Source: an uncultured bacterium (GTDB taxonomy: Bacteria; Patescibacteriota; Minisyncoccia; Phycocordibacterales; CAWITU01). From it: a stretch of DNA of 64,000 nucleotides. The notes under the pieces were generated by a model. It made no database searches and had not been told where the DNA came from. It was given only the letters and a program-made list of their open reading frames with translations. Positions 1 through 43,047 of the stretch are shown one piece after another. Where the stretch lies: NCBI GenBank assembly GCA_963839205.1, contig CAWITU010000002.1, positions 75,034-139,033 of the forward strand, read 5' to 3'. The position numbers were made by a program, and so were the translations under genes. Each line of letters opens with the position of its first letter. The first letter of the stretch is position 1.

Positions 1-231
1 CTTCCAACCTTGAAGGCTGGAAAAATTCAGGAGTAGTCAAATCTCTTAAAGTGTATACGGCCCAGGATGATAAAGTCTGCGCGGAGTGCAAAAGACATCA
101 CGCTAAAATTTTTCCGATAGAAGTTTCAAAAATGGGTTTTAATTTACCACCCTACAAACAATGCTCTTGTCCCTTCGGTTGTAGATGTTATTTTAGGCCC
201 TGGGATATTTCTTTGGATTGATAGCGCGCCA

Positions 232-1209
232 TTATTCTATAAGCTTCAACCGTCTTTGAAGAGCATGTGTGTTCCCATGCTCTAAAAGCCCTCTGTAAGA
301 ACTTACCGTTTCTCTCTTGGGATACCCTTCCATATTCCGTATAACCTTTCGCTTGGTAGTAGTTCGAATTTGTCGATGATGTGGAAAATGTACCCAGCCA
401 AGAAAATCTACCCCCGAATCATAGGTTTTTATATATACCTTATGCTCGTGAAGGGTAAGGTGCAGCCTCTCTTTTAGAAAGCTATCAATCTTCAACAAAA
501 TTTCTTTAAGATAGTCCTGGTTGTTTGATAGAATTGCAAAATCATCTGCGTAGCGAATATAGTATTTGACTCTTAGCTCCTGTTTAAGATACATATCAAA
601 CTCGTGCATATACACATTAACTAAAAGCTGCGATGTGAGGTTGCCGAGTGGTAGACCAATACCAGGCTGGGTAGTATAAAAACTTGAAACAACCTGGCTG
701 ATGAGCCAACGGATATCTTGATCGGCGATATGCCGTTCGAGAATCTCTACGAGAGTTTCCTGGTCTATACTGGCAAAGAATTTCTTAATGTCACATTTGA
801 GGACAAAACATGTTTTTGTATGGTTTTTCGAAACCCTACGTGCAAAATCTCTAAAACGATCGAGTGCTCTATGGGTGCCCTTGTACTTTCGACAAGAATA
901 GGAATCGTAAATAAAGCGATGATGAAAATACCAATAAAGCTCTTTGTATACGAGGTGGTGCAAAACCCTATCTCGTACTGTAGCTTTATGGATATTTCGA
1001 GGTTTTGGATCAGCAACATTAAATGCCGAATACGGCCCATGTATATAGGTTTTGTTTTTAAGATCTGAATACAAACTCGTGAGGTTTGTAGCAAGCTCGG
1101 TTTGAAATTTTATAACATCTTTTTTATTCCTTTTACCGCGCAAAAATCTCTCCCAGGTCAGGAGTAAATTTTCCATTGTAATGATAGAATCATATTTATG
1201 AGTCAACAT
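232..1209 (-). CDS. DGR-type reverse transcriptase (DGR-1)
   Basis: RT motifs including YADD (YADDFAIL) and the DGR-specific motif-4 signature LPLGNLTSQ (IGxxxSQ) followed by NVYMHEFD. N-terminus 'ENLLLTWERFLRGKR' is typical of DGR RTs. The true start may be the internal Met near 1176. ORFs 718-1068(+) and 765-1094(-) inside it are spurious. Confidence 0.85.
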   Translation of the reverse strand: MLTHKYDSIITMENLLLTWERFLRGKRNKKDVIKFQTELATNLTSLYSDLKNKTYIHGPYSAFNVADPKPRNIHKATVRDRVLHHLVYKELYWYFHHRFIYDSYSCRKYKGTHRALDRFRDFARRVSKNHTKTCFVLKCDIKKFFASIDQETLVEILERHIADQDIRWLISQVVSSFYTTQPGIGLPLGNLTSQLLVNVYMHEFDMYLKQELRVKYYIRYADDFAILSNNQDYLKEILLKIDSFLKERLHLTLHEHKVYIKTYDSGVDFLGWVHFPHHRQIRTTTKRKVIRNMEGYPKRETVSSYRGLLEHGNTHALQRRLKLIE

Positions 1210-1602
1210 GCCGTTCAGAAAAAACCTTTAAGTGTCCCCCCCCAGATTCCACTTGTCCTTGTGCGAGCTAAAAGTGCGTACCAAGTCTGGCATAACTCCA
1301 TTACAAATCTAAAGCGCGTTGATCGTTATACGATTGGTGCCAAGATTGATGATATTTTTCTCTCACTTCTCGAACTGATATTCAGAGCCTGTTTTGCTTA
1401 TGACAAATTTGAAAAGTTGTCGCTGGTATCACAAGCTATCGCAAAATCTGATCTACTTAAATTCTTTTTACAGATAGGCTGGGAAGACAAAGTCATTGAC
1501 CACAAAAGTTACGGCGCGCTCATCCTTCTCCTTGACGAAGTGGGCCGTATGCTTGGTGGTTGGAAGAAAACCCTTGGAGAGAAAACTCCCACTAACAAGT
1601 AG
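1198..1602 (+). CDS. Avd-like four-helix-bundle accessory variability determinant (DGR-1)
   Basis: 134 aa. The C-terminal 'LKFFLQIGW...LLLDEVGRMLGGWKK' parallels Bordetella phage Avd 'LRFWLRFLAG...LIAEVGRILGSWIAR'. Has the size and helical pattern of TIGR02436-like proteins. It lies on the strand opposite to RT, TR and target. Confidence 0.55.
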   Translation: MSQHAVQKKPLSVPPQIPLVLVRAKSAYQVWHNSITNLKRVDRYTIGAKIDDIFLSLLELIFRACFAYDKFEKLSLVSQAIAKSDLLKFFLQIGWEDKVIDHKSYGALILLLDEVGRMLGGWKKTLGEKTPTNK

Positions 1603-1619
1603 TGGGAGAAATCATTGAA

Positions 1620-1741
1620 GTTGCAGAAGCAGAGGAGAACGTTGTCGTCATTCCAGTCATTCTCGAAATTGCCGAGGTTGAGGTTGAAATCACCGTCCGA
1701 GTTAGCGTTCACGTACGGCACCCTGTGGTAGCCGTCGAGGT
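1620..1741 (-). repeat. DGR-1 template repeat (TR1)
   Basis: 122-nt repeat matching 2108-2229. All 17 mismatches fall at minus-strand adenines of this copy. The minus-frame translation (ORF 1509-1721) is Asn/AAC-rich (SDGDFNLNLGNFENDWNDDNVLLCFCN). ORFs 1602-1844(+) and 1509-1721(-) are TR read-throughs, not genes. Confidence 0.8.
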
Positions 1742-1995
1742 ATCCCCTAAAGCAATGTACGACGTGCCGTCTATACCACCAAGAAGAGCCCCAGCTCCTC
1801 TCTGTATTTTATTCCGAGCCCTGAAGATCATTCGCGCTCGCTGATACATCGCACCGACTTATTTGATTTTTTCATAAAAGGTGGCACTCACACTCAAGGC
1901 GTACCCGAAGTGTTGCTGGCCGATTCCCTATACGAGATTTCGATGACATGAAACCGTAGCCGCATGCTCTATCTACCGTCCACAGATATTATATA

Positions 1996-2036
1996 TAAAA
2001 AAGAGTGCCTCCGCCAAAAATATGGCGAAGGCACAA
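1996..2036 (-). terminator. Intrinsic terminator downstream of DGR-1 target gene (minus strand)
   Basis: Minus strand reads gtgccttcgccatatttttggcggaggcac, a hairpin, followed by tctttttt. Confidence 0.5.
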
Positions 2037-2083
2037 AGGGTCTAAAACCCAGGTTATTAACTAAGTGTCCAAGTTTCCAAGGA

Positions 2084-2785
2084 CTACTTGCCCGCAGCGG
2101 GCTCGACGTCGCAGAAGCAGAGGAGAACGCCGCCGTCATCCCAGCCACTCTCGAAACCGCCGAGGCCGAGGTCGAAACCACCGCCCGAGTGAGCGCCCAC
2201 GTACGGCACCCTGTGGTAGCCGTCGAGGTCTGGGAGGCGATCCTTCTCATCGAAGGAGCAGTACCATTTGCCCTTGGGCAATTGGTCACGCTTTTGTTCC
2301 CAGACGAGTGTGGCCCCTTGAGCGCCGGTGTGAACGGCCTTCTGTGTGGCCAGGAAGGCCATACGTTCCTCCGAGGTGGTCCTGCCTGGCACAATCTGCT
2401 TGAAGGCGCGAACGTGGAGTCTGTCGCCGGGTTTCAGAACACGTGTCGGTTTCTTGAAGTTCTTGTCGGTGATGTCCGAGTTGTAGTAATAAAACTCCTT
2501 CTCGTGGTTCCGGCGAAACGTGTCGAGATGATCCTTGTGCACGTAGTCGTCGGGCACCGTGATAATGCCGAGATCCACGAGCAGGCCGAACTTTACCTTG
2601 GGATCAGGCGGATTTGCAGGCTTCGGTTTGCTGTCGCCGAAACGCGCTTCCCGGTCTTCCGTGGAGAGGTTATTGAAACGCTCCCACTGACCGAATGTGA
2701 TTTGACCGCTACGCACCTTTTGCAAGGTGTCAATTTGCAGACCAGCCAATTTGGCCGCATCCGCGTCGATGATTGATGTACTCAT
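2084..2785 (-). CDS. DGR-1 target protein with C-terminal variable region (CLec/FGE-like VR)
   Basis: 233 aa. C-terminus 'GYHRVPYVGAHSGGGFDLGLGGFESGWDDGGVLLCFCD' corresponds codon-for-codon to TR1 with Asn replaced by G/D/S. The gene is GC-rich (~58%) relative to its surroundings. No signal peptide. The antisense ORF 1964-2776(+) is judged spurious. Confidence 0.75.
   Translation of the reverse strand: MSTSIIDADAAKLAGLQIDTLQKVRSGQITFGQWERFNNLSTEDREARFGDSKPKPANPPDPKVKFGLLVDLGIITVPDDYVHKDHLDTFRRNHEKEFYYYNSDITDKNFKKPTRVLKPGDRLHVRAFKQIVPGRTTSEERMAFLATQKAVHTGAQGATLVWEQKRDQLPKGKWYCSFDEKDRLPDLDGYHRVPYVGAHSGGGFDLGLGGFESGWDDGGVLLCFCDVEPAAGK
2108..2229 (-). repeat. DGR-1 variable repeat (VR1)
   Basis: Cognate of TR1: 16 A-to-G and 1 A-to-C differences in the minus sense, all at TR adenines. 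The 3' ~45 nt are identical. A small GC hairpin (gccc/gggc) lies at 2090-2102 just 3' of the VR. Confidence 0.8.
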
Positions 2786-3160
2786 CGTTTTCCTTTCGTT
2801 GATGTTAGTGTACGACTACAAAATGAGATTCCTTGGCTTAGAGCTTTGGCATTTCGTAATTCAGTGTGTATTGTAACATATTTAGTGGCTATCTGTCAAA
2901 TATCACTTACTGTGTATCTACCTCTTAATGTAAGCATAACTTCTCTTGCTCGTCACAATACGATGATGTTCCGACTTTCGTCCAGACCACAATTTCAGGA
3001 GGCTGTGAATATCTGGCGGAATTTAGGCAACACTGCCTAAGGAGCTTCTTAAGCGAGGAGCTTGTCCTGGTCATTTTGTGGAACCCTTACAACACCGCCC
3101 CTCTGGGGTTCTCCCCACAATTTTTTATCTAGCGGCTCTTTTATCTGCTAAAATAGAGAT

Positions 3161-4240
3161 ATGGATAAGTTAAAACAAGGTTCTTTATCTGTTGGAAAAA
3201 TCAAAGCTAAAGATTTCAAGACTGCACCTCCGTTACCAACAATTGATATAGAAAATAGGCGCTATGTTGGAAGTAAAGCCAAGCTGCTTGATTGGATTTT
3301 TGAAAATATTAAGAAAGAGTGTAAGGGTAATAGTTTTCTTGATATATTTGCTGGGACAGGGGTTGTTTCTGCTAGAGCTGCTAAAGTGTACAACAAGATT
3401 ATCCTGAATGATCTTCTTCATTCGAATCACGCTGTTTATCAAGGTTTTTTCTCGCAAGAGAAATACAACAGAGAAAAAGTTTTTGATTTGGTGGCTTATT
3501 ATAATTCTCTTGTTTCGAGCAAGGTAGAACATACTTTTTTCTCACGTAATTATGGAGGTAAGTATTTCAGTATTGATTCAGCAAAATTAATCGGGTATAT
3601 CCGAAACGATTTAGATAATCGGAGGTGTCAATTGAACGATAAAGAGTATTATATACTTCTCACATCGCTTCTCTATTCTGCAGACAAGATCGCAAATACT
3701 GTAGGTCACTACGATGCTTTCTTCTCAAAGAGTGTCGTCGATAAAAAGTTCATCTTTCGCCTAATTGAACCCCTCATAAAAGCGGGGAAAGTTTCCATAT
3801 ACCGGGAGGACGCAAATATTCTTGCTCGAAAGATCAGTGCTGATGTTGTCTATATTGATCCACCCTACAATTCCCGACAGTACAGTCGTTTTTATCACGT
3901 ACTCGAAACCCTTACTCTTTGGGACGATCCAAAACTTACAGGAGTTGCTTTAAAACGACCAGAAGAAAACATGAGTGATTATTGTAAGAATAAAGCCGTT
4001 GTGGTTTTTGAGGATTTAATCAAGAATTTAAAAGCAAAATACATTGTCGTTTCTTACAACAATACATATAACTCAAAAAGTAGCTCATCTAGAAATAAGA
4101 TTGAACTTGAGGATATAAAACATATCCTAAATGCGAAGGGTAAGACAAAGGTTTTTAAAAAGAACCACCAATTTTTTAATGCCGGTAAAACAAATTTTAA
4201 CAATCATCAAGAATACCTTTTTATTACAAAAGTAAAATGA
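3161..4240 (+). CDS. N6-adenine DNA methyltransferase (Dam-like, alpha class), R-M MTase 1
   Basis: N-terminal 'RRYVGSKAKLLDWI', motif I 'DIFAGTGVVS' and motif IV 'DPPY' (IDPPYNSRQY) about 170 aa later. Stop codon TGA overlaps the next ATG (ATGA). Confidence 0.75.
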   Translation: MDKLKQGSLSVGKIKAKDFKTAPPLPTIDIENRRYVGSKAKLLDWIFENIKKECKGNSFLDIFAGTGVVSARAAKVYNKIILNDLLHSNHAVYQGFFSQEKYNREKVFDLVAYYNSLVSSKVEHTFFSRNYGGKYFSIDSAKLIGYIRNDLDNRRCQLNDKEYYILLTSLLYSADKIANTVGHYDAFFSKSVVDKKFIFRLIEPLIKAGKVSIYREDANILARKISADVVYIDPPYNSRQYSRFYHVLETLTLWDDPKLTGVALKRPEENMSDYCKNKAVVVFEDLIKNLKAKYIVVSYNNTYNSKSSSSRNKIELEDIKHILNAKGKTKVFKKNHQFFNAGKTNFNNHQEYLFITKVK

Positions 4241-5148
4241 GTTTAGAAATTCAGATTAAGCGCTCGCCATTCTTTTATGTTGGCGATAAATACAAACTCA
4301 TTGGGAAAATTAAAAAATATTTTCCAAAAGAAATAAACACTTTTGTAGAGCCATTTTTGGGAGGGGGGAGCGTTTTTTTAAACGTAGAAGCAAAACAATA
4401 TATTCTGAATGATGTAGACCAAAATGTTATCTTTTTACATAAATTTCTTGTAGGCCAGGCTGGTAAAGAAAAAACTCTTATAAAACAGATAAAAGTTTTG
4501 CTTAAACAGTATAATCTTTCCCGATCTGTTTTTGAAGATGTGGTACCTTATTCTCTTAAAAAAAAATGGCTTAAAACCTACTACGCCCATTTCAATAGGG
4601 AAGGGTATGCATCACTTAAAGAAAAATACAATAATAATAAAAATAAAGATCCGCTTTTGTTATATTTATTGTTAGTATACGGTTTTAATAGAATGCTTCG
4701 TTTCAATAAGCAGGGTAAATTTAATATTCCTGTAGGCAATGTGGATTTCAATAAAAATGTTTTGAGTGCTCTGCAAAGTTATTTTTCTACAGTAAAAGAC
4801 AGAAATATAAAATTTTATAGTAAGGACTTTAGGATATTTTTCAATAACCTTAAATTGAAGAAAGACGATTTTGTATATGTTGATCCTCCGTATCTAATAT
4901 CGGCCAGTGAGTATAATAAACTCTGGAATGAAAAACAGGATGTAGAGCTTATGGGGGCGCTTGATGATCTTAATGATTTAGGGATAAAATTCGCTGTATC
5001 TAATATTACTGCTTATAATGGCAGAGAGAATAAAAAATTGATATCCTGGATGAGGAATTACAATGTTCATTTGGTCGACAGTAACTATATAAGTTATCAT
5101 AACAATACCAAGAAAGAGATTAACGAGGTCTTAATCACAAATTACTAG
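4237..5148 (+). CDS. Dam-family (D12 class) N6-adenine DNA methyltransferase, R-M MTase 2
   Basis: 'FFYVGDKYKLIGKI', 'EPFLGGGSVFLNV' and 'VYVDPPYLISASEYNKLWNE'. Translationally coupled to both neighbours. Confidence 0.8.
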   Translation: MSLEIQIKRSPFFYVGDKYKLIGKIKKYFPKEINTFVEPFLGGGSVFLNVEAKQYILNDVDQNVIFLHKFLVGQAGKEKTLIKQIKVLLKQYNLSRSVFEDVVPYSLKKKWLKTYYAHFNREGYASLKEKYNNNKNKDPLLLYLLLVYGFNRMLRFNKQGKFNIPVGNVDFNKNVLSALQSYFSTVKDRNIKFYSKDFRIFFNNLKLKKDDFVYVDPPYLISASEYNKLWNEKQDVELMGALDDLNDLGIKFAVSNITAYNGRENKKLISWMRNYNVHLVDSNYISYHNNTKKEINEVLITNY

Positions 5149-5149
5149 C

Positions 5150-6688
5150 ATGCCCATTCGAAGAGAAAGCGAATACAAGCCACTTTTATTTACTACTACC
5201 GTTAGAAACCCTGAGAGATTTAAGGGCATGCTTGCTGTACTTAAAAATTATGACGAGGAAATTTTAACTAATGAGCTTGCAGAAGAGGTTGCTGGGGAGC
5301 TTATTAAGATTGGTATATATCGTCCAATGAAGGTCAGTAGGGAAGTTAAAGACAAGTGGGAGGAAGGACAACCTCTTTCTGCTGAAGATATTATAAAAAT
5401 TCTTCAAGATAATCCTCAGGACCATAAAGAAGCCGGATTTGATCACGGCTGGGTCTCAAGGTTTGATACATGGTTTAAATTAGCAAAAGAACTTGGATTT
5501 GTTTATTACGAGATGAATATTCCTATTGAGTTTTCAAAAATAGGCCTAAAACTTGCAGATACAGAACATCCAGAATTTGAACAGCAAGCATTCCTAAATG
5601 CATTTGCTAAGTATCAGCGCAATAACCCATTGCGGCGTGTTTCTAATGAGAACGTACCACTCATCTTACTTTTACAGGTGATCAAGAAAATCAATGATGA
5701 TCAAGATTTCAATGATGCAGGTATCACTAAACTTGAAGTACCTTTATTTTTAACCTGGCGAGATGATAATGCTGATGCGCTATATGAAAAGATAAAAGAG
5801 ATTCGCACGAGATTTGGATATGAACCAAGTTGGGAGGTCATTTTGAAAGAGGTGGATGAACTTACTGGAGGACGACATGCTTCTATGCCAGATAAGACAA
5901 TAATGGTTGAGTACGTAGATGATTTTTTAAGGAAGATGCGTTTAACTGGCCTCATTACAATACGTGGATTTGGGAGATTTATTGATCTAAATAAAAAGGA
6001 ATTAGCGAAGATAGATTATGTCTTAGAGACATATTCGAAGTATGAGAAGTATAGTAATGAAAAAGATTACTTTAAGTACATTTCCTCTATAGACGAGCAT
6101 TTGATCTCAATAGAACGAGTATATGAGACAAATGTTGTAGAAGAAAATAAACTATTGCAAAAGTGGGCAACTCATTTTAGCTGGGAAATTATTAAACGCG
6201 AGATTTTGAAATTAACTACTAGTAGTCCAACATCGACTGATGAAGTACTTTCCTTGATCCCTAGTCCTCTCAGGTTAGAGTTTTTAACATCTTTAGCTAT
6301 TTTAAATAAGATTCCAAGCGTAACTGTAAAACCAAATTATATATCTGATGATGAGGGATTGCCTTCCTCTCATGCTCCGGGTAATGGCGCAGATATTGAG
6401 TGTTGTGAAAAGGAAAAATATACCCTTCTGGAGGTAACGCTTTTAAATGGTGTTGTGCAGGTTCAGCGTGAGATGCCTCCGATAAGTAGACATCTGGAGG
6501 ACTTTAGAATTAAACATAAAGATGTCGTAACCCTTTTTATTGCCCCAGTTATTCATGAAGATACCAAACGCTGGGTTAGTTTTATAAAACACAAGGACGA
6601 TCTTGATATATACAACTTTTCTATCTCTGATTTTGTTAATAAATTAGATGGCGGTGTAGAAGAACTAAATATGTTAGCTAAGAGTTAG
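5150..6688 (+). CDS. Putative restriction endonuclease (possibly Type IIS-like) of the R-M cluster
   Basis: 512 aa with no recognisable housekeeping domain. Starts 2 nt after MTase 2 in the same operon. Called by gene context only. A possible catalytic region lies around 'GADIECCEKEKYTLLEVTLL'. Confidence 0.4.
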   Translation: MPIRRESEYKPLLFTTTVRNPERFKGMLAVLKNYDEEILTNELAEEVAGELIKIGIYRPMKVSREVKDKWEEGQPLSAEDIIKILQDNPQDHKEAGFDHGWVSRFDTWFKLAKELGFVYYEMNIPIEFSKIGLKLADTEHPEFEQQAFLNAFAKYQRNNPLRRVSNENVPLILLLQVIKKINDDQDFNDAGITKLEVPLFLTWRDDNADALYEKIKEIRTRFGYEPSWEVILKEVDELTGGRHASMPDKTIMVEYVDDFLRKMRLTGLITIRGFGRFIDLNKKELAKIDYVLETYSKYEKYSNEKDYFKYISSIDEHLISIERVYETNVVEENKLLQKWATHFSWEIIKREILKLTTSSPTSTDEVLSLIPSPLRLEFLTSLAILNKIPSVTVKPNYISDDEGLPSSHAPGNGADIECCEKEKYTLLEVTLLNGVVQVQREMPPISRHLEDFRIKHKDVVTLFIAPVIHEDTKRWVSFIKHKDDLDIYNFSISDFVNKLDGGVEELNMLAKS

Positions 6689-40272: not shown

Positions 40273-40440
40273 TTTTTTCCTATTTTTAATTATCCCCAGA
40301 AATTATGGGTATACAATTTTTCTTCCTGTAATCTATGATATTATTAAAGATAAATGAAACATATTCTCAATCTTAGTTCAAAAAAAGAACCAGAGGTCGT
40401 TATCGTTGAAAAAATCATCCTTAAAAAAAGAAGTTTTTTT

Positions 40441-41133
40441 ATGGAGACACTTCGGGTTATCTTGGCAGTTGTTATTGTTTCGGGAACAATATGGGGGGTT
40501 TCTTTTGCTGGTTCTCTCATCCCCCCATCTGGCACCCCATCTAAAACCATGTACACCTTAGATGATATTTATACCCTTGTTACTACTGGCACTACTACGC
40601 CTTCTACAAATTTCACAACTCCCGGATCAGCAACATCAACATTTCACACACTAACAGATATTGTGAATGCTTACCATGTACCAAGTACAACTTCTAATCC
40701 AAATTCTATAGGTCCGTTTGTTTCCGACGGTCAGCCAGACAATGGCTATCTTGATCAGAACACTGGCCTTATTTGGGAAAATACTGATGCGGGACAATAT
40801 CTCTGCTGGGATGGAAACCAAGGTTGTGGACCAATACAAGCCGTGGAGTACTGTCAGTATCTTGATGCCGATGGTGTAACTGTGGATGGTACACCTCAGA
40901 ATATTTGGAGACTACCCACGATTAAAGAATGGGAGTCGGTGTTAGATTACAGTAACGATGCATATAATACATACGGTGTTGCGACCGCGTTGCCGAACAC
41001 TCCCAACGCCTACTATTGGTCGAGTACTGAGTATGCACCCAGCAACTTCTACGCTTGGGTCGTCGGCACCGTCGGTGGTAGTCTGGACGTCTACAACGAG
41101 AACGGCTACGCCCTTGCTCGATGCGTCCGCTAG
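40441..41133 (+). CDS. DGR-2 target protein: secreted DUF1566 (Lcl/TvpA-like CLec fold) protein with C-terminal VR
   Basis: Signal peptide 'METLRVILAVVIVSGTIWGVSFA'. DUF1566 motifs 'TGLIWENTDA', 'WRLPTIKEWESVL' and 'YWSSTEYAP...ALARCVR'. The last ~38 codons equal TR2 except at TR adenines. The track ORF starts upstream at 40354. Confidence 0.85.
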   Translation: METLRVILAVVIVSGTIWGVSFAGSLIPPSGTPSKTMYTLDDIYTLVTTGTTTPSTNFTTPGSATSTFHTLTDIVNAYHVPSTTSNPNSIGPFVSDGQPDNGYLDQNTGLIWENTDAGQYLCWDGNQGCGPIQAVEYCQYLDADGVTVDGTPQNIWRLPTIKEWESVLDYSNDAYNTYGVATALPNTPNAYYWSSTEYAPSNFYAWVVGTVGGSLDVYNENGYALARCVR

Positions 41134-41142
41134 AATTCCTGC
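41000..41142 (+). repeat. DGR-2 variable repeat (VR2)
   Basis: Aligns with 41703-41845 at an offset of 703 nt. About 22 substitutions, all at TR adenines; A to G, T and C all occur. The 3' ~35 nt are identical, including the stop codon. Confidence 0.9.
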
Positions 41143-41164
41143 ATTCTTTGATTCTTTTCTTCTT

Positions 41165-41186
41165 CCGCGCACAAACCTGTGCGCGG
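41165..41186 (+). promoter_or_regulatory. GC-rich stem-loop downstream of VR2 (DGR target-recognition hairpin)
   Basis: ccgcgcaca-aacc-tgtgcgcgg, a 9-bp stem, 23 nt after VR2. No counterpart after TR2. Confidence 0.6.
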
Positions 41187-41208
41187 TGGCTGATGGGACT
41201 TAATCAAT

Positions 41209-41568
41209 ATGTCACAGTACCTTCATTTACCAATATATAATGCAGCCTTTGTCTTTCTGAAAGAACTCAATATGAGGGTACCGAAGTTTGCCAAGCAGTA
41301 TAAATATTTTCTTGGCGGACGGTTGATTGAATACAACGTTGACATAATTCGGTTAATTATTGAAGCGAACAATTGTCGGGATATGTCTCAAAGGGCAATA
41401 GTGCTAGCAAAGCTTTCCGAAAAAATAGAGCTTCTTATACTACATTCTCGGATAGCTGAAGAGCTTGAACAGTGGGGGAATAAGAAAGGGTATTTGTTTT
41501 TGGTCGAAAAATTAGCAGATCTTTCAAAACAAGCCGAGGGTTGGAGAAAATCTTCCCGGAGTTTTTAA
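41209..41568 (+). CDS. Avd accessory variability determinant (DGR-2)
   Basis: 119 aa. 'LPIYNAAFVFLKELNMRVPKFAKQYKYFLGGRLIEYNVDIIRLIIEAN' is the typical Avd N-terminal helix pattern. Basic C-terminus. Confidence 0.75.
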   Translation: MSQYLHLPIYNAAFVFLKELNMRVPKFAKQYKYFLGGRLIEYNVDIIRLIIEANNCRDMSQRAIVLAKLSEKIELLILHSRIAEELEQWGNKKGYLFLVEKLADLSKQAEGWRKSSRSF

Positions 41569-41702
41569 TCTTAGATTGAAAAGTGTGGAATAAGGAATTC
41601 AGTCTCTGCTCTTCACTTTTCCAGACAATTGTTTGAGAAGGTGGAGAATAAATGTACCTGAAGGTCACGGAAAGTCAGAGACTTCATTAATGTGTCATAC
41701 TT

Positions 41703-41845
41703 CTCCCAACGACAACTATTGGTCGAGTACTGAGTATGCACCCAACAACAACAACGCTTGGAACGTCAACACCAACAATGGTAGTCTGAACAACAACAAC
41801 AAGAACAACAACAACCTTGCTCGATGCGTCCGCTAGCATTCCTGC
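41703..41845 (+). repeat. DGR-2 template repeat (TR2)
   Basis: AAC/AAT-rich; translation 'YWSSTEYAPNNNNAWNVNTNNGSLNNNNKNNNNLARCVR'. Sense strand is the same as the RT. ORF 41633-41836 is a TR read-through, not a gene. Confidence 0.9.
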
Positions 41846-41874
41846 TCCTACCCTCGGCTTATTTTGAATAATCT

Positions 41875-43047
41875 ATGAGTACTATTTTTACATTAGAAAA
41901 AATATGGAATGCCTATGAAGATTGCCGGAAGCGTAAAAAGAATACAGTTAATGCCCTGAAATTTGAGCTTAATCGTGAGAAAAATCTTGTAAAACTTTTG
42001 TATGATCTAAAATCTCGCCGTTATAAAATTTCTCGGCATATCTGTTTTATTGTTACAGTTCCTACGCCACGAGAAATATTTGCTGCGGATTTTCGAGACA
42101 GGATCGTTCACCATCTTTTGTATAGAGAGCTATATGAAATGATTGATGTTGATTTGATTGCTGATTCATATGCTAATCGACGGGGTAAGGGAACCCATTC
42201 TGCTGTGTCTCGTCTTAGTAAATATATTAAGGAGATCAAAAGTGAGACGGGTGGAGGATTTTATCTTAAGCTTGATGTCCAGAGTTTTTTTCGTTCTATA
42301 GATAGAAGTATTTTATTTAAAATTTTAGAGGACAAATTATTAAAAAAAGTTTCAGGTTATGTGTTTAATTCCAATCACGACGACGTGTGGTTACAAGAGG
42401 TGTTTTGGCTTTTGAAGGAGATCATTTTTAATGATCCGACACTAAACTTTATTTATAAAGGAAATCCAGCTTTACAAAAACTCATTCCCCCGAATAAGTC
42501 ACTGTTTTATTCGGGGGGACGAGGATTACCTATCGGAAATTTGACTAGTCAATTTTTTGCTAATGTTTATCTTAATGAACTTGATCAATTCATTACAAAA
42601 AAACTTGGCTTCAGTAAATATCTTCGCTACGTTGACGATTTTGTTATTGTTTCCGACGACAAGGAAAAGTTACGCTCGTCAATAAAACCGATTGATGATT
42701 TTATACGTCAGCGTCTCAATCTTAAAATCCATCCCCATAAGATTTGTCTTCAGTCAGTTTCCTTGGGTATAGATTATTTGGGATATTTTATAAAGCCAAC
42801 ACATAGTGTAATAAGGCAAAAAGTTGTTAGTAGGTTTAAAAACAAATTATATAAAATATCGCACAAAGAGAGTTTGTTGCGCGATCAAGTTGAGCAAATT
42901 TTACCTATGATTAATTCATATTACGGACATTTTAGTCATGCCAGTAGTCACAACTTACGTGTTGCTCTCTATAAAGAACATATGTTAAAATTAAAGGAGA
43001 GAATCGTTTTTGATGATAAATATAATAGTGCTAGTTTAAAAAAATAA
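41875..43047 (+). CDS. DGR-type reverse transcriptase (DGR-2)
   Basis: 'LPIGNLTSQFFANVYLNELD' (DGR IGxxxSQ signature), 'YLRYVDDFVIVSDD' and fingers motifs 'FRDRIVHHLLY' and 'RRGKGTHSAV'. Confidence 0.9.
   Translation: MSTIFTLEKIWNAYEDCRKRKKNTVNALKFELNREKNLVKLLYDLKSRRYKISRHICFIVTVPTPREIFAADFRDRIVHHLLYRELYEMIDVDLIADSYANRRGKGTHSAVSRLSKYIKEIKSETGGGFYLKLDVQSFFRSIDRSILFKILEDKLLKKVSGYVFNSNHDDVWLQEVFWLLKEIIFNDPTLNFIYKGNPALQKLIPPNKSLFYSGGRGLPIGNLTSQFFANVYLNELDQFITKKLGFSKYLRYVDDFVIVSDDKEKLRSSIKPIDDFIRQRLNLKIHPHKICLQSVSLGIDYLGYFIKPTHSVIRQKVVSRFKNKLYKISHKESLLRDQVEQILPMINSYYGHFSHASSHNLRVALYKEHMLKLKERIVFDDKYNSASLKK

Follow-up and report, generated by a model that had tools for sequence, protein, structure and literature searches.

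Among the diversity-generating retroelements (DGRs) described so far, those of CPR bacteria are dominated by a single layout, TR-(avd)-RT, termed the 'B3' architecture, to which 90% belong (Wu et al. 2018, PMC5758913), and the targets of CPR clade 2 DGRs are typically free of transmembrane (TM) segments or other recognizable domains (Roux et al. 2021, PMC8144416). The DGR of Bordetella phage BPP-1, arranged as mtd-avd-TR-brt, combines adenine-specific transfer from a template repeat (TR) to a variable region (VR) with a reverse transcriptase (RT) bearing the [I/V/L]GxxxSQ motif, an Avd protein, and a variable protein of C-type-lectin (CLec) fold that forms the phage tail fibre. Directly 3' of its TR lies a stem-loop of ~9 bp, seen by cryo-EM as the Avd-binding element, and a 3' 'spacer' there holds a priming adenosine and an RT-binding stem-loop; 5' of the TR only 20 nt are needed. 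An 'Avd-binding stem-loop just downstream of TR' has been described for 207 of 278 Avd-DGRs. In a survey of 155 DGRs, transitions to G were the commonest change, with 'widely varying ratios' between VRs (PMC3521204). The Bordetella RT reconstituted in E. coli likewise gives mainly A>G (bioRxiv 10.1101/2025.08.18.670894), whereas the purified enzyme misincorporates dA most in vitro, so that the spectrum depends on cellular conditions.

The locus analysed here, DGR-1, lies near one end of the window, a 64,000-nt stretch of an uncultured patescibacterial genome, and its cassette comprises an RT, an Avd, a TR and a target of 233 aa whose C-terminus holds the VR. The 325-aa RT gene (232–1209, minus strand) matches Pfam RVT_1 (E 9e-24) and PHROG 1423, reverse transcriptase (E 2e-98), and holds the two motifs that the earlier note had pointed out, YADD within IRYADDF and LGNLTSQ, an instance of [I/V/L]GxxxSQ, within GLPLGNLTSQ. 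The accessory gene avd encodes 134 aa on the opposite strand (1198–1602, plus), matching Pfam bAvd PF22296 (E 5e-13; 50 bits against a cutoff of 40) and PHROG 3206, 'Avd protein of DGR' (E 2e-16), and its start overlaps that of the RT head-to-head by 12 nt. This gene, antisense between TR and RT, had been left out of the earlier note. It is antisense to both TR and RT in all 55 family loci examined, and the order target-VR-spacer-TR-(avd)-RT recurs at 17 loci from genomes and at most of 80 from metagenomes. At 14 genome loci with the same cassette the RTs are 68–81% identical to that of DGR-1, and the titles of 53 genome loci name nearly all hosts as Patescibacteria-lineage metagenome-assembled genomes (MAGs), with a few unclassified or otherwise labelled.

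With a DGR-type RT, TR/VR differences confined to TR adenines, a target gene that carries the VR at its 3' end and an Avd, DGR-1 is an intact and complete DGR that is probably active today. The opposite-strand avd between TR and RT, the patescibacterial host and a target with no TM segment, signal peptide or known domain place it with the B3 / clade 2 DGRs of CPR bacteria, from which, sharing their gene order, antisense avd, hosts and C-terminal VR, it differs in nothing essential. By contrast, the antisense position of avd between TR and RT and a cellular rather than a phage tail fibre target set it apart from BPP-1.

A repeat search across the 64 kb returned only two long repeat pairs, one at 1617–1741 / 2105–2229 with 86% identity and the other belonging to a second DGR at 41000–41845. 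Ungapped alignment of TR (1620–1741, minus strand) with VR (2108–2229, minus strand) gives 17 mismatches over 122 nt, all of them at adenines of the minus (coding) strand of the TR (T on the plus strand), with 16 A>G and a single A>C at plus-strand position 1703; these counts agree with those first reported for the locus. The TR holds 30 adenines, of which 57% are changed in the VR, and none of the other 92 positions differs. It is non-coding, rich in Asn codons and situated 488 nt downstream of the VR. Translation confirms both of the peptides quoted previously: the TR frame reads ...SDGDFNLNLGNFENDWNDDNVLLCFCN, and the VR gives ...SGGGFDLGLGGFESGWDDGGVLLCFCD, after which the 233-aa ORF (2084–2785, minus strand) continues through VEPAAGK to its stop, leaving 7 codons between the VR and the stop. 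In the protein alignment of the family, hypervariability falls on these columns too. The identical block had been given as 45 nt at the 3' end; the longest is in fact 32 nt (1710–1741) and, as read on the coding strand, opens the repeat at its 5' end. Towards the 3' end, 18 adenine-free identical nucleotides (1623–1640, GTTCTCCTCTGCTTCTGC) precede the last variable codon (AAC/GAC), and the flanks of TR and VR diverge past this block, a candidate IMH/IMH* region. Five nucleotides past the VR, a small GC hairpin with a 5-bp stem, GCCCG-CUG-CGGGC (2090–2102, minus strand), can be read from the sequence; it may be the counterpart of the inverted repeat downstream of the IMH in BPP-1, in an uncertain role, and it is not conserved across the target-family loci.

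The target gene (2084–2785, minus strand) encodes a charged, helical N-terminus forming a three-helix domain, a Pro-rich linker and a small C-type-lectin-like domain of about 165 aa (residues ~65–228) with a conserved end, ...LLCFCD. Its family exceeds 549 Patescibacteria proteins, the closest homologue being 74% identical, and an exact-protein look-up returned no record of the protein elsewhere. The protein matches nothing in Pfam or PHROGs, a profile search against the PDB gave chance matches only (E above 0.2), and no sequence similarity to TvpA (2y3c), Mtd (1yu0) or FGE-type domains is detectable. A structure model of the C-terminus had been proposed as a check for a CLec/FGE fold; the predicted structure is that of a divergent C-type-lectin fold with the VR displayed on it, but Foldseek found nothing significant in the PDB, the top matches being nonetheless of C-type-lectin fold. 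We saw no signal peptide or TM segment (highest 19-residue Kyte-Doolittle mean 1.12), which bears out the earlier assessment, and CPR DGR targets in general share this want of TM segments, signal peptides and Pfam domains. Targets of this kind without signal peptides had already been reported before DGR-1.

A promoter-like site, TTGACA-18-TACAAT with a TG (2870–2899, minus strand; 11/12 matches in the promoter scan), stands upstream of the target gene, and an intrinsic terminator with a 12-bp stem and T-run follows it (2005–2034, minus strand), an equivalent GC hairpin with T-run being present in related spacers. The intervening 3' UTR (2035–2083, minus strand) is rich in short CTTAG, CCTTGG and CCCTTTG motifs, and such motifs are enriched family-wide in the first 150 nt past the VR (CTTAG 16x, CCCTT 12x, CCTTG 7x). 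As had been noticed, the region is GC-rich, with a GC content of 0.52–0.63 over 2000–2850 against 0.30–0.42 in the flanks, and third codon positions (GC3) reach about 0.65–0.69 in the target against about 0.37–0.38 in the RT. Neither 'GC-rich' nor 'cytoplasmic' is peculiar to DGR-1, each describing the family or clade as a whole, and the clade property has been published (PMC8144416). A chimeric assembly is rejected as the source of the GC jump because the same jump occurs at every family locus, and DGR mutagenesis is rejected because third-position T is depleted like A and the part of the gene outside the VR is affected too. The GC3-rich target family belongs to AT-rich genomes.

Upstream of the TR, a promoter scan places a promoter-like site, TTGGCG-18-TATAAT (1988–2017, minus strand), whose TATAAT/TATACT box falls at the same columns of the family alignment. 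Between it and the TR lies a structured leader of ~240 nt (1742–1981, minus strand), its presumed 5' end set by the promoter. RNAalifold over 21 loci gives 54 pairs, 36 of them with compensatory changes, and 95.9% of cells are paired against 36–52% in slid controls. The helices are P1 (1967–1946), P2/P2a/P2b (1935–1872), P3 (1854–1843 with 1768–1757), P4 (1840–1815) and P5 (1802–1781), and the single-stranded blocks AUGAAAAAA, AGUCGGUG and AAUAAAAU are invariant. A covariance model of the 3' domain, in which 23 of 25 pairs covary, matches 1752–1871 (minus strand) and 44 loci outside the training set, always just 5' of a TR. The leader is absent from Rfam, where positions 1–3200 gave no match at E<=1. 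Its single-sequence fold is unremarkable (z = -1.1), and the structural evidence is the covariation.

Downstream, 11 nt past the TR, a 9-bp stem-loop, CUCCCACUA-CUUGU-UAGUGGGAG, is followed by UUUU (1582–1608, minus strand); it overlaps the avd stop codon and gives a terminator-like match. Folded one by one, nearly all family loci show a hairpin of 7–10 bp with TTTT at this position, the stem sequences differing; joint folding of a MAFFT alignment of 46 loci with RNAalifold recovers only 4 pairs, since the subgroups do not align in register. By its position and size this element matches the Avd-binding stem-loop described 3' of the TR, the one in BPP-1 included, and is thus a putative Avd-binding site. 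The BPP-1 3' spacer has no obvious counterpart at DGR-1, since the stem-loop there runs into a U-tract and then into antisense avd coding sequence, and the 240-nt covarying leader of DGR-1 contrasts with the 20 nt that suffice 5' of the BPP-1 TR. A stop duplex like that of BPP-1 was also considered and dropped, a by-eye search of the 5' and 3' TR flanks having given no consistent covariation or complementarity.

The spectrum of the DGR-1 VR can be judged against 57 TR/VR pairs of the same lineage, which together hold 517 changes to G, 197 to C and 256 to T (53% G, 20% C, 26% T). The VRs are heterogeneous (chi-square p 1.5e-5), a beta-binomial describes them better than a binomial (LRT 19), and at 94% G the DGR-1 VR is an outlier by each measure (binomial p 3.6e-4; context-aware p 7e-5; beta-binomial tail 0.0055), and chance under a uniform 1/3 model does not produce such a skew either. 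The scarcity of A>T and A>C had been called unusual for a mutagenesis that normally yields all three substitutions: the VR is indeed a true outlier, but the premise was overstated, A>G being the commonest class. About 0.3 VRs this extreme are expected among the 57 pairs and two are observed, DGR-1 and locus L129 (23 G / 1 C / 1 T).

Spectra diverge even where the machinery is shared: the two VRs of locus L020, with the same RT and TR, carry 8/1/2 and 4/6/6 changes to G/C/T (Fisher p 0.02). DGR-2, in the same genome as DGR-1, differs from it with 13 G / 2 C / 9 T (Fisher p 0.006), so a pool bias that is constant across the host is not enough to account for the skew. Between L002 and L003, with TRs 97.5% identical, the VRs differ at 23 sites, 19 of which are TR adenines, an indirect sign that DGRs of the lineage are active. 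The skew is explained neither by RT sequence, no RT residues being specific to DGR-1 and L129, nor by genome GC, as the G fraction shows no correlate in flank GC or TR GC. Context matters within the codon: across the lineage the first A of AAC is changed in 81% of cases, evenly to G/C/T (.35/.34/.31), and the second in 49%, almost never to C. The family turns AAC into Gly (GGC) less often than expected (27 cases against 38.6), yet the DGR-1 VR is Gly-rich, so something beyond sampling may be at work.

We consider it likely that DGR-1 belongs to the standard Patescibacteria lineage of B3 / clade 2 architecture and that its skewed VR is the extreme tail of the ordinary A>G preference. Three-way mutagenesis from which only Gly, Asp and Ser (small or acidic) variants survived in the population is an unlikely alternative when taken as the explanation of the skew. 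The outcomes at codon positions 1 and 2 of AAC are non-independent in the family (chi-square p 3e-12), so selection or context does shape the VRs that we observe, and no change is synonymous, all TR adenines standing in the first or second position of their codons. Against this, the family under-represents Gly, an all-Gly/Asp surface would be an odd binding site, and L129, with a different VR sequence, shows the same near-pure A>G, poly-Gly outcome, for which a mutational effect looks likelier than convergent selection. A mutational cause could lie in a distinct regime in which only dC is misincorporated (for example through dTTP shortage in a nucleotide-scavenging organism) or in which adenosine of the TR RNA is deaminated to inosine. 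We hold such a regime to be improbable, even though 2 of 58 VRs stand at 92–94% A>G, no other VR has as large a share of its adenines changed as that of L129 (81%), the first adenines of AAC in DGR-1 became mostly G against the even family split (the context-aware p above) and the Bordetella RT spectrum shifts with conditions. The one A>C of the DGR-1 VR speaks against it, the G fraction tracks neither the share of adenines that are changed (rho 0.01) nor genomic GC, no deaminase gene adjoins the cassette, and an overdispersed ordinary model already yields a 0.5% tail. That the Gly-rich VRs of DGR-1 and L129 represent a separate state of the Patescibacteria DGR lineage, by dC-only insertion, for example under thymidine shortage in a nucleotide-scavenging cell, or by inosine in the TR RNA, is decidedly improbable.

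Two further readings would deny that the VR is a working allele. The VR in the contig could have been assembled from a diverse population as a consensus or along a chimeric path, metagenomic VRs being often heterogeneous and the window probably coming from a MAG, as all relatives do; yet a plurality consensus at family frequencies would read GAC (52% A at the second position) and not the observed GGC, and the assembly runs unbroken across the region within a 279 kb contig, so we regard an artefact as very improbable. The earlier note also raised 'A-to-G editing-like decay of a retired VR', in which the VR would drift from its TR through transitions. Beyond the transition bias itself nothing points that way: the 122 nt hold no non-adenine difference, with no T>C, C>T or G>A, although generic decay would yield other transitions too, and the RT, Avd, leader RNA and stem-loop are intact and match the family consensus. 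A fossil VR is scarcely credible.

Taking DGR-1 as an ordinary member of its lineage with an extreme VR, we propose a scheme in which the promoter at ~2017–1988 (minus strand) would drive a TR RNA consisting of the ~240-nt structured leader, the 122-nt TR and the 9-bp stem-loop with its U-tract. The RT and the Avd encoded on the other strand would bind this RNA and copy the TR into cDNA with misincorporation opposite adenines, and the cDNA would then replace the VR at the 3' end of the target gene, rewriting about 14 Asn/Asp codons on the presumed ligand-binding face of the C-type-lectin-like domain. The present VR would have arisen in a recent homing event, and its 16:1:0 G:C:T spectrum would mark the far end of a lineage-wide preference for inserting dC opposite A. 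Variation from VR to VR most likely arises from single events, such as the state of the dNTP pool during cDNA synthesis, together with selection on the protein.

As a DGR, DGR-1 adds nothing categorical, for its architecture, hosts, adenine specificity, target type and A>G preference have all been described before. In the part of the CPR DGR literature that was covered, we found no description of the target family with its CLec-like model, of the GC3 anomaly or of the leader RNA. The 57-pair natural spectrum of one CPR lineage, context-dependent as it is, provides a baseline for judging 'odd' VRs. The covarying leader suggests that B3-type DGRs carry the RNA scaffold for RT-Avd upstream of the template and not in a Bordetella-style 3' spacer, which, if true, bears on how cDNA synthesis is primed in the most DGR-rich group of bacteria.

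At window positions 232-2785 (minus strand), DGR-1 is a genuine, complete and, judging from its sequence, probably active diversity-generating retroelement (DGR) of the known CPR type. Its reverse transcriptase gene (RT; 232-1209, minus) matches Pfam RVT_1 and a DGR-RT PHROG (E 2e-98), and avd, recognized by bAvd PF22296 (above cutoff) and by the PHROG 'Avd protein of DGR', lies on the plus strand at 1198-1602, which places it antisense between the template repeat (TR; 1620-1741, minus) and the RT. The avd start codon and the RT start overlap head to head, and by inference the promoter of each lies within or beyond the opposite gene. The gene for the 233-aa target (2084-2785, minus) carries the variable region (VR; 2108-2229) at its C-terminal end and is flanked by sequence motifs for a strong promoter-like site (2899-2870, minus) and an intrinsic terminator (2034-2005, minus); a second promoter-like motif (2017-1988, minus) faces the TR. 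The target 3' UTR (2035-2083, minus) is dense in short CTTAG, CCTTGG and CCCTTTGA-like motifs spaced by ~8-10 nt, and such a motif-rich 3' UTR occupies the first ~100 nt past the VR in most family loci, where the enrichment relative to the remaining sequence of the loci is 16-fold for CTTAG and 12-fold for CCCTT. DGR-1 adjoins a restriction-modification cluster (3161-6688, plus) of two D12-class N6-adenine methyltransferases (3161-4240 and 4237-5148) and an AlwI-family endonuclease (5150-6688). At the window edge, a short Cys-rich ORF (51-221, plus) has a weak, sub-threshold match to phage Mu F/minor head protein (E 0.002), a hint that DGR-1 may border a mobile element.

TR and VR align without gaps and differ at 17 positions, each a T in the plus-strand copy of the TR and thus an adenine on the minus strand (17/17). 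A>G accounts for sixteen of the changes and A>C for the remaining one; in all, 57% of the 30 minus-strand TR adenines are changed, with 0 mismatches at the other 92 positions. The 17 differences and their 16:1 split agree with the earlier note, as do the peptides it quoted, the 233-aa ORF and the two RT motifs, YADD and LGNLTSQ. Its 45 identical nucleotides at the 3' end need correction: the uninterrupted match between the two copies spans 32 nt (1710-1741) and sits at the coding-strand 5' end of the repeat, while the 3' end carries an identical, adenine-free 18-mer (1623-1640) that is absent from the rest of the window. A search for long repeat pairs in the 64 kb returned this pair and one more, at 41000/41703. 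The latter positions fall in DGR-2 (40354-43047, plus), which has the classical same-strand order of target (40354-41133, with an N-terminal hydrophobic segment), VR (41000-41142, ending ...ARCVR), avd (41209-41568), TR (41703-41845) and RT (41875-43047; 31% identical to the DGR-1 RT); its TR/VR pair has one non-adenine mismatch and a spectrum of 13 G, 2 C and 9 T.

A genome scan returned 53 loci, whose titles point to Patescibacteria-lineage MAGs in nearly every case, a few being unclassified or otherwise labelled. The same cassette, in the order target-VR, ~340-nt spacer, TR, antisense avd and RT, is present in 17 of the 53, with RT and Avd identities to DGR-1 of 68-81% and 64-91%. About 30 genome loci, roughly two thirds, are orphan target homologues with no RT, Avd or TR within 6 kb (among them L001, L005, L006, L008 and L009), and in some MAGs an orphan occurs alongside a cassette (for example L025 and L040). 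A metagenome scan with the RT alignment added 80 further loci. Throughout the lineage avd is antisense (55/55 loci examined), with 394-474 nt between TR end and RT start, and a purpose-written repeat finder recovered 57 TR/VR pairs with 0-3 non-adenine mismatches in each. In L007, L020 and L110 one TR serves two VRs.

The target ORF has no family match in Pfam or PHROG. Its homologues number at least 549 at E<=1e-3, the best 60-74% identical, and those with names come from Patescibacteria without exception. The family alignment is well conserved apart from the last ~35 residues, in which the variable columns are exactly the TR Asn/Asp positions, with variants including Tyr, His, Arg, Phe, Cys and Leu. 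From an AlphaFold2 model built on a 30-sequence alignment (mean pLDDT 82), the check for a CLec fold that had been proposed, we conclude that residues ~65-228 make up a divergent CLec-like domain, in keeping with a DGR variable protein. With a 19-residue hydropathy maximum of 1.12 and a charged helical domain at the N-terminus, the target is apparently cytoplasmic, as the earlier note had it; this is an already known trait of the clade, since CPR clade 2 DGR targets typically lack TM or other recognizable domains (PMC8144416).

The reported GC richness of the target (0.52-0.63 vs about 0.38 in the flanks) is likewise common to the whole family. GC3 is 0.69 in the DGR-1 target vs 0.37 in its RT, and family means are 0.65 for the target outside the VR (2230-2785, minus, plus 56 related loci) vs 0.38 for the accompanying RT; RT and avd composition tracks the AT-rich host, and the target remains GC-rich. 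Even in 31 orphan homologues GC3 is 0.65, with flanks averaging 0.44 GC. Because A and T are both depleted at third codon positions and the effect is family-wide, neither adenine mutagenesis nor misassembly lies behind it.

The near-absence of A-to-T and A-to-C changes, which had been called unusual, holds up as an outlier, but against a bias that was already known. In a survey of 155 DGRs, A>G was the most frequent class, with ratios that differed widely from VR to VR (PMC3521204). When reconstituted in E. coli, the Bordetella RT misincorporates mostly C, giving A>G (bioRxiv 10.1101/2025.08.18.670894), whereas dA is the most misincorporated nucleotide with purified enzyme in vitro (PMC7826257), so the DGR spectrum is condition-dependent. 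Counting substitution classes over the 57 lineage pairs gives 517 G, 197 C and 256 T (53/20/26%). Within AAC, the first A is changed in 81% of cases (G/C/T.35/.34/.31) and the second in 49% (.69/.03/.28); as the second almost never becomes C, lineage VRs have next to no Thr, Ala or Pro codons. They carry an excess of Asp, Ser, Arg, Tyr and Phe and a deficit of Gly, Cys, Ile and Val. The 16/17 G of DGR-1 departs from the lineage (binomial p = 3.6e-4; 7e-5 with sequence context), yet the lineage G fraction is itself overdispersed (heterogeneity p 1.5e-5; beta-binomial LRT 19), and a beta-binomial fitted without DGR-1 gives it a tail of 0.0055, or ~0.3 cases expected in 57 pairs. The related locus L129 (VR 2499-2608, TR 2969-3078) is as extreme: its changes are 23 G, 1 C and 1 T, and 81% of its TR adenines are affected. 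Its VR turns Asn to Gly nearly throughout and is unlike that of DGR-1 in sequence. Five further loci (L080, L095, L131, L122 and L114) reach 76-81% G. The skew is thus real, yet part of a continuous, overdispersed distribution.

As to its cause, we found no unusual RT residue common to DGR-1 and L129, and among the lineage pairs the share of G follows neither GC content, in the flanks or in the TR, nor the changed proportion of adenines. Two VRs of L020 that share one TR and RT have spectra of 8/1/2 and 4/6/6 (G/C/T; p 0.02), and DGR-2, in the same window as DGR-1, stands at 13/2/9. The cause therefore most likely lies at the level of the event or in selection, not in enzyme sequence or genome composition. 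Among AAC outcomes in the family GGC is under-represented (27 observed vs 38.6 expected), yet both extreme VRs are poly-Gly, which leaves a small probability that the DGR-1 VR reflects a separate mutagenic state; in statistical terms the A>G-only VR is an outlier on a bias known before, and is evidence neither of decay nor of a new mechanism. Editing-like A-to-G decay of a retired VR, which the earlier note had raised to explain the skew, fits poorly: generic decay of that kind would be expected to bring other transitions, of which 122 nt hold none, and RT, Avd and RNA elements are intact and agree with the consensus. The lineage, moreover, is demonstrably diversifying: L002 and L003, whose TRs are 97.5% identical, show 23 differing VR sites, of which 19 correspond to TR adenines. 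No close strain turned up in the databases searched. Taken together, the absence of non-adenine change, the intact parts and the diversifying lineage argue for a recent homing event as the likely origin of the DGR-1 VR.

On the 3' side, a 9-bp stem-loop with a UUUU tail (1608-1582, minus) lies 11 nt past the TR and overlaps the stop codon of antisense avd, and nearly all family loci have a 7-10-bp hairpin with TTTT at this site, with differing inner stem sequence. It looks like a candidate intrinsic terminator of the TR RNA and, by analogy, like a counterpart of the stem-loop that Avd binds in the Bordetella DGR RNA; an Avd-binding stem-loop just downstream of the TR occurs in 207/278 Avd-containing DGRs, CPR included (bioRxiv 10.1101/2023.10.23.563531). 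On the 5' side, a conserved, structured leader RNA of ~240 nt (1742-1981, minus) reaches from the promoter-like site to the TR, and is found directly 5' of the TR in ~65 related loci (for example L002:6790-7024 and L063:2858-2978). RNAalifold gives it 54 pairs in 7 helices, 36 of the 54 with compensatory changes, and invariant single-stranded blocks AUGAAAAAA, AGUCGGUG and AAUAAAAU; 95.9% of cells are paired, vs 36-52% with partners slid, and 0/500 shuffles match the observed values. Covariation extends to 23/25 pairs of the 3' domain. A covariance model of this domain, built from 20 loci, has a single match in the window (1752-1871, minus) and none near DGR-2, and it matched 44 loci outside the training set, each directly 5' of a TR (E 1e-22 to 5e-4). 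The leader has no match in Rfam 15, and we found no description of one in the literature searched. The Bordetella model needs just 20 nt upstream of the TR and places its scaffold in a 140-nt 3' spacer. In contrast, the 3' side in this lineage consists of hairpin, U-tract and antisense avd, and the covarying structure is 5' of the TR, from which we infer that the RT-Avd scaffold of the lineage may lie largely 5' of the template and not in a 3' spacer.
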